A DNA stretch of 64,000 nucleotides, from NCBI RefSeq assembly GCF_003334405.1, contig NZ_QOWM01000001.1, one strand, 5' to 3'. Position 1 is the first letter of the stretch. Each line of letters opens with the position of its first letter. The translations under genes were made by a program, and so were the position numbers. Below the pieces are notes generated by a model. The model saw nothing but the letters and a program-made list of their open reading frames with translations, ran no database searches and had not been told where the DNA came from. The DNA is from Escherichia coli. Lineage in GTDB: Bacteria > Pseudomonadota > Gammaproteobacteria > Enterobacterales > Enterobacteriaceae. Below are positions 61,470 to 62,567 of the stretch, piece by piece.

Positions 61470-61655
61470 TTAGTGGTTATTCGCTGCCAGATCGGCTTCG
61501 CTTAGCTGGGTGGCCGCGAGCACCTGGTCACGATCAAAGCCCTGTTCCAGCATGCGCAAAGCAATTTTAATGGCTTGTTCATGCAAACCTTCTAATTTAC
61601 CTTCCTGCCAGCCAATTTGATGTCCTTCCTGCCGCAGCCGTTCAGCAATAGTCAT
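61470..61655 (-). CDS. ypaA: YpaA, stand-alone copy of the Rpn C-terminal small domain (RpnS-like)
   Basis: 61-aa ORF with strong SD (AAGGAGAG); near-identical to the last 56 aa of the upstream rpnB product apart from a 5-aa insertion and a diverged tail. Confidence 0.8.
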   Translation of the reverse strand: MTIAERLRQEGHQIGWQEGKLEGLHEQAIKIALRMLEQGFDRDQVLAATQLSEADLAANNH

Positions 61656-61667
61656 TAATCTCTCCTT

Positions 61668-61838
61668 TTAATGACAGTTCGGAATATCAGCATCAGTGAG
61701 TTGGGTTGTCGCCAGCACAATCTCACGTTCAAAGCCCTGCTCCAGCATGCGCAAAGCAATTTTAATGGCTTGTTCATGCATACCTTCCTGCCAGCCAATT
61801 TGATGCCCTTCCTGCCGTAGCCGTTCAGCAATAGTCAT
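61668..61838 (-). CDS. Putative intragenic short isoform RpnS(B) from an internal in-frame start within rpnB
   Basis: In-frame ATG ([11 protein letters not shown]...) preceded by AAGGAGAG inside the rpnB coding sequence, identical in arrangement to the ypaA start region. Confidence 0.45.
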
Positions 61839-62567
61839 TAATCTCTCCTTTTGTAGTGGTGAACGTTCGGCAATCTCCTCAATAAAACGGGTGAAACGGG
61901 AGGTATCGCCGCATTGCAGCAGATAATTAAACAGTGTTTGTAGCTGGCTGTCATTAGTGAAGCCTCTAACCAAAAGCGTGGTGATCCTGTCGACCATGCC
62001 GATTAAATCGCGGTCGCGAATATGCTTTTGAATCAGTTCCAGCAGAGCTATACGCCGATGTTGCATGATCTCATCGTCAGGTACGATGGTGATATCCACC
62101 AACGGAAAAGCTTCGGTGTACAACTGCCGGGCAAGTTGCGGATCGTCAAACTCATCCAGCCAGTTGAGTGAGTACGGGTAAGGCGAGGTTTCGCCATGAT
62201 AAAACAGCAACGGCACCACCAGCGGGACTCTGTCATAGCCTTTGTCCAGGTGACGCTGCATGGCGGCAGTGGCATAGCGCATTAGCCGAAAAGCCATATT
62301 CTTTTCTGCAGAGCTTTGATGTTCAATCACGCAGTAGATATAGCCGTCACCGTCGCTGGTTTCCACGGACCACAAAACATCCGAGTAGTAAGCGCGTAAA
62401 CTTTTTTCAATAAAACTAGTGGGTTCCAGGCGTAAGGTTTGCAGGTTGCAAAGCTTGCGCAGTGGTTCTGGTAAATGTATTTCGAGAAAATCCCGTGCGG
62501 TTTCGGGTGTGAACATAAAGGTTTTAAATACCGCATCATGCGGGGAGGAGGTTGTTGATTCGGTCAT
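61668..62567 (-). CDS. rpnB: RpnB (YfaD), Rpn/YhgA-like recombination-promoting nuclease (PD-(D/E)XK, transposase_31-like)
   Basis: 299-aa ORF; Rpn-family N-terminal nuclease region (…[23 protein letters not shown]…) and C-terminal small domain. Confidence 0.85.

Follow-up and report, generated by a model that had tools for sequence, protein, structure and literature searches.

In Escherichia coli, the rpn genes contain internal starts from which short antitoxins (RpnS) are made; these bind the toxic full-length nucleases and inhibit them, which was demonstrated for RpnA, RpnB, and RpnC (Zhong et al., PNAS 2023, PMC10400941). Here, we consider how one rpn locus compares with these described systems, namely rpnE (yfaD) and the small gene ypaA that follows it. 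The locus lies on the minus strand at positions 61470–62567 of a stretch of E. coli DNA of 64,000 nucleotides (nt) (RefSeq assembly GCF_003334405.1, contig NZ_QOWM01000001.1). This whole stretch is referred to as the window, and all coordinates are those of the window unless a fetched locus is named.

Taken as a whole, our explanation is that this is the known rpnE–ypaA (rpnE_Ss) module of E. coli, and we would put its probability at roughly 0.8. In this explanation, rpnE encodes a PD-(D/E)XK nuclease of the Rpn family, RpnE_L, with a small helical C-terminal domain, and an in-frame Shine-Dalgarno (SD) sequence and ATG at codon 244 also give the C-terminal domain alone (RpnE_S, 56 amino acids [aa]). 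If RpnE_S works as the short forms of RpnA, RpnB, and RpnC do, its long first helix would attach to the C-terminal domain of RpnE_L and the nuclease would be blocked. A head-to-tail duplication specific to E. coli and ~190 nt in length would have duplicated the S module together with its SD and ATG, from ~30 nt 5′ of the ATG to about codon 52. The downstream copy, ypaA, would keep the ancestral 3′ half, stop codon, and terminator, and in the copy inside rpnE the 3′ half would have diverged and would end in a new tail (IPNCH) made at the junction. Read in this way, the locus would be a textbook case of a gene within a gene, the inner product being a dominant-negative regulator of its own full-length product.

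Closest Described Systems

The crystal structure of RpnA_S has been solved (7TH0; Zhong et al., PMC10400941). Pairing specificity in these systems is set by a hypervariable 4-aa repeat in helix 1 and, for RpnC, a mismatch of a single repeat (one extra) abolishes neutralization (PMC10400941, Fig. 4D of Zhong et al.). The same authors draw an analogy with EcoR124I/EcoR124II, in which the number of 4-aa (TAEL) helix repeats likewise tunes specificity; there, however, the repeats belong to a type I restriction specificity subunit and set DNA spacer recognition, whereas the Rpn repeats set protein–protein pairing. Phage defense has been shown only for the plasmid-borne RpnP2 (PMC10400941).

The rpnE–ypaA locus itself has been described in two publications. 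Meydan et al. (2019, bioRxiv 10.1101/520783) located Ribo-RET peaks of initiation within each of the five rpn genes and set RpnE-C beside YpaA in an alignment, noting their resemblance; the value of “98% identical” given in that preprint for the internal product of rpnE and YpaA was not reproduced with K-12-type sequences, which give 75%. Zhong et al. (PMC10400941) renamed ypaA as rpnE_Ss, presented Onc112 and retapamulin profiles for “rpnE-ypaA/rpnE_Ss,” and detected both RpnE_S and YpaA as proteins carrying the sequential peptide affinity (SPA) tag. They also described how Rpn_Ss genes come from their own upstream gene and may be lost by deletion or fusion, and they cite transcription start sites, mapped by differential RNA sequencing (dRNA-seq), inside all rpn genes. 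Second RpnS copies are mentioned in Koonin's commentary as well.

The arrangement, the origin of ypaA from rpnE, the 4-aa repeat variation, and the loss by deletion or fusion are, in other words, already known, having been published in 2019 and 2023. The original prediction, made from the letters of the window, had read a gene within a gene and a free-standing copy of the C-terminal module. Both readings are correct and in print, the first from the Ribo-RET and Onc112 peaks and the SPA-tagged RpnE_S, the second from Meydan et al. and Zhong et al.; the novelty that it implied does not stand. Compared with the published locus, nothing of substance is different here. What we add is the frequency of the junction between the copies, the ancestral polarity, the mosaic of 5′ and 3′ divergence, purifying selection on ypaA, and the mismatch in repeat number.

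RpnA_L/RpnA_S resembles RpnE in its domain architecture, in an 11-residue stretch conserved at the internal start, in the three-helix bundle of the short form (predicted in the case of YpaA), and in the point of helix 1 at which repeats are inserted. It differs in having no free-standing second copy, and in being a toxic, active nuclease whose neutralization, like that of RpnB and RpnC, has been shown, whereas RpnE was inactive in the same assays. Closer in layout are rpnC–rpnC_Ss of some E. coli and a case in Rahnella bruchi, where a free-standing S module likewise sits just 3′ of the parent rpn gene through local duplication; these are independent events, with spacers of ~80 and 212 nt as against 12 nt at rpnE–ypaA. 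Among the loci screened from 80 relatives, only two free-standing S copies were found 3′ of other rpn genes, in Rahnella bruchi (3652–3891 of the fetched locus) and in E. coli SCPM-O-B-8794 (3507–3698 of the fetched locus). Compared with the S module of its own gene, the former shows 62% identity and the latter 87%, and the Rahnella bruchi copy differs from that module in repeat number.

Identity of the Long Gene

The segment is 100% identical to several E. coli strains and 99.9% identical to K-12 MG1655. Its genes run in the order rhmD-yfaV-yfaU | ypaA-rpnE-glpCBA, and the full-length coding sequence (CDS) of 299 aa (61668–62567, minus strand, between glpC and yfaU) carries the RefSeq name rpnE. 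Its product scores 699.5 bits against the NCBIfam RpnE equivalog NF007418, above the curated cut-off of 583, and 422 bits against the RpnA model, below the cut-off of 583. The original prediction had called the gene rpnB, and this name has to be corrected to rpnE/yfaD on the grounds of synteny, the RefSeq label, and the NF007418 score. RpnB is YfcI and RpnE is YfaD (Kingston et al. 2017); the RefSeq rpnB is a separate paralog with 65–66% protein identity, located about 58–62 kb away on contigs of other Escherichia.

The PD-(D/E)XK nuclease domain (Transposase_31, YhgA-like, Pfam PF04754) covers residues 8–209 (61941–62546, minus strand; E = 7e-88). All of D11, D63, E82, Q84, R94, and D165, the positions mutated in RpnA as active-site residues (Kingston et al. 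2017), are kept in RpnE, so the reported inactivity of RpnE is not explained by an obviously dead active site. RefSeq and the Prokaryotic Genome Annotation Pipeline (PGAP) also label rpnE as “ISNCY family transposase”; Zhong et al. (PNAS 2023, PMC10400941) argue that Rpn proteins are not transposases.

Architecture of the Repeat

The list of open reading frames (ORFs) holds two on the minus strand, of 299 aa (61668–62567) followed by 61 aa (61470–61655). Together they harbor a head-to-tail direct repeat of two units of ~190 nt each, one inside the nuclease gene and the other making up most of ypaA. Unit 1 (c1, 61686–61877) consists of pre-SD sequence, the SD, and most of rpnE_S, and unit 2 (c2, 61491–61688) of the rpnE tail, the SD, and most of ypaA, both boundaries having been drawn from the repeat search and alignments. 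The search returned a 5′ block of 72 nt with 97% identity (61598–61669 and 61781–61852, spacing 183) and a 3′ block of 102 nt with 84% identity (61491–61592 and 61686–61787, spacing 195). Over the whole aligned units, DNA identity is 85%, and YpaA and RpnE_S are 75% identical (46/61) with 85% positives by BLASTP. A tandem direct repeat in which each copy has its own SD and ATG had been proposed from the start, and this is what we see; its description as near-identical suits the 5′ 72 nt and does not extend to the 3′ part, the units as a whole, or the proteins.

Both copies are headed by AAGGAGAG-ATTA-ATG, with the ATGs at 61838 and 61655. The internal ATG is codon 244 of the long ORF and in frame, its SD lies at 61843–61850, and the resulting rpnE_S (61668–61838) codes for 56 aa before the stop and has no additional 4-aa repeat following WQEG; the alignment to 7TH0 begins at M244. 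At the junction (61656–61670), the rpnE stop codon TAA (61668–61670) is followed at once by the second SD (61660–61667) and then ATTA, so that only 12 nt separate the rpnE stop from the ypaA ATG. The ypaA gene (rpnE_Ss, 61470–61655) codes for 61 aa before its stop, among them one additional 4-aa repeat, and matches NF007418. The 20-mer ATGACTATTGCTGAACGGCT is found exactly at both starts, where shuffled sequence gives an expectation of 0.00 matches. The S-module start is matched a third time, at 18/20 positions, by 19189–19208 on the minus strand; this stretch runs antisense within a 445-aa ORF read as nuoF and was dismissed as chance.

The two copies differ in length by 12 nt, as the spacings of 195 and 183 indicate, which amounts to M being replaced by KLEGL, a net gain of four codons. 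The original prediction had counted a 15-nt insertion of KLEGL; it is 12 nt (~KLEG, 61587–61598, the exact register being ambiguous), present in ypaA and absent from rpnE_S, and corresponds to one unit of the hypervariable 4-aa repeat known from this family.

Upstream, local alignment extends c1 to GAGATTGCCGAAC (shuffle p ~0.02), a boundary that is only probable. The sequence before the ypaA SD, GATATT-CCGAACTGTCA, aligns with GAGATTGCCGAACGTTCA before the internal SD. This alignment suggests that the unit starts ~30 nt before the ATG, and that the rpnE tail IPNCH* may be a frameshifted copy of the pre-SD sequence. When two models of the junction were compared, derivation of the rpnE tail from pre-SD sequence (p 0.019) was weakly favored over derivation from the ancestral tail (p 0.059).

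Family Membership and Fold of the S Modules

YpaA and RpnE_S both match positions 244–308 of NF007418, with 108.5 and 95.5 bits, respectively. For YpaA this is the best family match (E = 3.3e-31), far above the RpnA model. The 80 relatives fetched yielded 74 distinct S modules that begin with an M-T/G-[ILVM]-[AT]-[EDQ]-type start, and a profile built from 33 S modules matches RpnA_S (PDB 7TH0) over its full length (E = 5.5e-12). The AlphaFold model of YpaA (predicted local distance difference test score, pLDDT, 76) has a long helix that contains the repeat (3–37) and two short ones (42–49 and 53–57). The top PDB match of this model in Foldseek is 7TH0, with a probability of 1.00 and a template modeling (TM) score of 0.73 on the target, far ahead of the rest.

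In some species, stand-alone copies carry a DUF4351 annotation (Zhong et al., PMC10400941). Pfam DUF4351 (PF14261) gave no match to YpaA even at E ≤ 10 and matched 0/33 S modules, and a Pfam search with YpaA and these 33 modules found only sub-threshold matches of a helix-turn-helix type. Neither RpnE nor YpaA has a significant match in PADLOC-DB 2.0, a database that predates the Rpn report, and an Rfam search of 61000–63000 at a permissive threshold gave no match. Designed pentatricopeptide-repeat proteins received high summed scores from the S-module profile and were set aside as a helical-repeat artefact, each single repeat match having an independent E-value (i-E) of at least 26. These matches run through the pattern G-K-x-E-E-A-L-x-I-A-x-x-M-L-E-x-G-I-D, which probably reflects a generic resemblance between helical hairpins.

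Spread and History of the Duplication

We searched 5,426 complete E. coli genomes, at ≥80% coverage, with a 121-nt probe that spans the junction from the end of rpnE into the beginning of ypaA. The junction is present in 3,132 of them and ~42% are without it, and its carriers span several lineages, including K-12, 536, O145, and O6:H16. In all 24 duplicated loci sampled, the junction sequence is the same, give or take one or two bases, which suggests that it arose once.

At the syntenic position, E. albertii, E. whittamii, two further Escherichia species, and the divergent “E. coli” SCPM-O-B-8794 have a single copy, and Citrobacter and Salmonella diarizonae have one rpn gene adjoining glpC. 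The single-copy genes of these Escherichia end in tails of the ...LSEADLAANNH type, that is, the ypaA type, followed by the same downstream hairpin. The ancestral state would then be one gene with a ypaA-like 3′ end, and we read ypaA as the copy that retains this end, a new detail of the present analysis.

This polarity can also be seen in a 93-nt 3′ block in which identical positions were counted. The ypaA copies and the single-copy E. coli alleles share 87–93/93 positions among themselves, and the ypaA group shares 81–89/93 with the four other Escherichia species. The internal copies share 90–93/93 among themselves, 75–80/93 with the ypaA copies, 71–78/93 with the four other species, and 82–85/93 with SCPM-8794, their closest relative. 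Taken against the outgroups, ypaA is thus the nearer copy (82–89/93, compared with 74–78/93 for the internal one). The divergence between the copies in this part exceeds the distance between E. coli and E. albertii. For the two copies in the window, synonymous divergence (dS) in the 3′ block is 0.46 and nonsynonymous divergence (dN) is 0.12; their ratio (dN/dS) of 0.25 led us to reject positive selection on the diverged half.

The 5′ part has a different history. Over a 57-nt 5′ block, the window copies differ at only two positions, both synonymous, and across strains c1 and c2 are intermixed in this block (R14 c1 equals O145 c2, 57/57), as opposed to the 3′ blocks, which are reciprocally distinct. 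We therefore describe the repeat unit, as judged from these alignments, as a mosaic with a 5′ part that is homogenized or recently shared and a 3′ part that is deeply diverged. This mosaic suggests either an old duplication whose 5′ part underwent gene conversion or a duplication in which a divergent, imported allele took part.

Single-copy alleles within E. coli add to this picture. The 300-aa rpnE of E. coli B consists of the 5′ block of the window c1 (57/57, no extra repeat) and the 3′ block of c2 (93/93), and is an exact recombinant of both copies from which 195 nt were deleted by recombination between the repeat units; in strain B-RalR, this chimera occupies positions 771–1673 of the fetched locus. 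The single gene of O157:H7 (308 aa, two repeats) looks like that of the outgroups; it may represent the ancestral state or a further fusion. In SCPM-O-B-8794, the single-copy rpnE (from 3205 of the fetched locus) has helices 2–3 like those of c1 and a c2-type tail, a mosaic module that hints that both 3′ types are old alleles. In E. coli UTME-10 (395–2633 of the fetched locus), an IS2 element has split a single-copy rpnE after the nuclease domain and before the S module, which, with its SD and ATG, is left as an ORF by itself.

Repeat Numbers and Selection on ypaA

Repeat numbers were determined in 22 of the 23 junction-positive rows of an evenly spaced listing of the genome-search results. 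Writing the extra repeats as (internal copy, ypaA), we found (0,1) in 10 genomes, (8,4) in five, (5,1) in three, (5,2) in two, and (5,0) and (6,4) in one genome each; a further haplotype, (1,4), occurs outside this sample. Equal repeat numbers in both copies were found in 0/22, which sets a 95% upper bound of ~13% for the collection. Among strains, extra repeats range from 0 to 8 in RpnE_S and from 0 to 4 in YpaA, always in 12-nt steps, and strain R14 has arrays of period 24 in both copies.

The ORF, SD, and ATG of ypaA are intact in all 24 duplicated loci sampled (seven haplotypes), where length changes by 12-nt steps only. Outside the repeat codons, the ratio of nonsynonymous to synonymous polymorphism (pN/pS) among strains comes to 0.12 in ypaA and 0.14 in the internal copy, values that come from few sites and from pairwise comparisons that are not independent. 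As far as these polymorphism data reach, ypaA is under purifying selection. RefSeq/PGAP mostly annotates ypaA (61470–61667 and homologous loci) as a pseudogene, “incomplete, missing N-terminus,” starting at the rpnE stop. In a few genomes, it is an intact CDS of 61 or 73 aa (WP_000150333.1, WP_000150331.1) or a “Rpn/YhgA-type helix-turn-helix domain-containing protein.” The intact ORFs, the low pN/pS, and the published detection of the protein argue against the pseudogene reading.

The Role of YpaA

The original prediction offered three ideas for ypaA: a spare antitoxin, one of shifted specificity, or a decoy. Shifted specificity fits the sequence data best, and YpaA is more likely a paralog with altered pairing specificity than a simple spare, because the repeat number of its helix 1 differs from that of the co-resident RpnE_L and RpnE_S in every sampled genome. 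If the one-repeat effect seen with RpnC is general, a K-12-type YpaA with one repeat should pair poorly with RpnE_L and RpnE_S, which have none. We are somewhat doubtful that YpaA would be a redundant back-up, a cognate antitoxin that neutralizes RpnE_L just as RpnE_S does and so raises the dose, even if this would explain why K-12 RpnE is inactive. In its favor, YpaA and RpnE_S do not differ over the N-terminal 19 residues of helix 1 and most of the changes elsewhere are conservative; YpaA is known from published work to be expressed; RpnE alone among the K-12 paralogs was nontoxic, in strains with a chromosomal ypaA (Kingston et al. 2017); and Koonin's commentary suggests that a second copy decouples toxin from antitoxin and permits more flexible regulation. 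Such a back-up is hard to square, however, with repeat numbers of 0 and 1 in the window and no equal pair among the sampled genomes, with the loss of RpnC neutralization on adding one repeat, or with helices 2–3 and a tail that are distinct between the copies in all haplotypes.

A bolder version of shifted specificity, in which YpaA would be no spare but a deliberately mismatched partner that keeps the ancestral C-terminal module, escapes the resident pairing through its differing repeat number, and acts on non-resident Rpn alleles (incoming or phage-borne), or serves as a recombinational donor of C-terminal specificity, seems unlikely to us. That ypaA could instead be a functionless by-product of the duplication, the gene fragment that PGAP annotates, translated only through its copied SD and ATG, is quite unlikely. 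Such an origin would agree with the incomplete pseudogene of most RefSeq genomes, with the ready loss of the gene (~42% of genomes without the junction, and a fused gene in E. coli B), and with there being no known ypaA phenotype, but it sits badly with an ORF that is intact in every duplicated locus sampled and changes in frame only, with a constraint (pN/pS 0.12) like that of the internal copy, which is itself part of RpnE_L, and with a conserved SD and ATG and a published protein. We would give little credence to ypaA as mainly a donor cassette, from which exchange would reassort, in the toxin and its intragenic antitoxin at once, both repeat number and C-terminal half. A donor would speed the diversification of a defense gene, and the exact c1/c2 chimera of E. 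coli B, the intermixed 5′ and reciprocally distinct 3′ blocks, and the single-copy mosaic allele of SCPM-O-B-8794 would all be in keeping with it; Zhong et al. (PMC10400941) raise the speculative idea that such events might be promoted by the RpnL proteins. The exchanges observed, however, are deletions and fusions that destroy the cassette, no sampled haplotype combines a c2-type 3′ half in rpnE with a retained ypaA, the intermixing is based on a 57-nt block with few variable sites, and repeats can be expected to recombine in any case, with no need for selection to have favored it. A repeat that arose in assembly, or one peculiar to a single strain as the original prediction had allowed for, is refuted by the junction in 3,132 complete genomes from several lineages, with nothing to be counted in its favor.

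Several points weigh against the explanation that we prefer, that of the known rpnE–ypaA module with a YpaA of shifted specificity. RpnE is the sole K-12 paralog that was inactive when overexpressed, whether for recombination, toxicity, or SOS induction (Kingston et al. 2017). The original prediction's premise of a toxic and recombinogenic nuclease is thus not supported for RpnE, and a toxin to be neutralized at this locus is not established. Similarly, restraint by short isoforms, which the prediction also invoked, holds for RpnA, RpnB, and RpnC, whereas for RpnE and YpaA the literature shows expression only, in tagging strains (PMC10400941). The repeat mismatch was rejected as a significant pattern in its own right: there are 6–7 independent haplotypes, and random pairing would, by our estimate, give no match ~60% of the time. 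The deep divergence of the 3′ half could reflect an old duplication or an imported allele, not divergence in place. The upstream boundary of the repeat depends on a weak alignment (p ~0.02 vs. 0.06 for the alternative), and the co-transcription of ypaA that we propose below is inferred from consensus scans only.

What is of modest interest to specialists is thus the role of the free-standing copy, given a RpnE that is inactive in assays and a YpaA whose repeat number is off that of its neighbor in every sampled genome. Since a mismatch of one repeat abolished neutralization in RpnC, RpnE and YpaA form a natural pair and a ready-made test of repeat number as a determinant of toxin–antitoxin specificity.

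Expression and Neighboring Features

A strict promoter scan of the locus returned no site. A relaxed sigma-70 scan of the minus strand over 61440–62760 returned one only, a candidate internal promoter for the short transcript at 61926–61954 identified by consensus match (−35 ATGACA at 61954–61949, 17-nt spacer, −10 TTTAAT at 61931–61926). It lies ~88 nt upstream of the internal ATG, outside the repeat, and would fit the starts of transcription within rpn genes to which Zhong et al. refer. The same relaxed scan found no promoter-like site between the internal ATG and ypaA. With no promoter-like site of its own and with the rpnE stop abutting its SD, ypaA most likely shares a transcript with rpnE_S and rpnE_L, and its translation may be coupled as well.

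Downstream, a GC-rich hairpin at 61436–61462, terminator-like on the plus strand, separates the convergent yfaU and ypaA. As minus-strand RNA it has a folding energy of −12.1 kcal/mol (z = −2.1), and it is a probable terminator shared by the two genes. In Escherichia sp. MOD1-EC7003, Escherichia sp. E1V33, and E. whittamii (about 3446–3694 of the fetched locus), only 100–210 nt of yfaU align 3′ of rpnE, and this rhamnonate aldolase gene seems to have been truncated or replaced.

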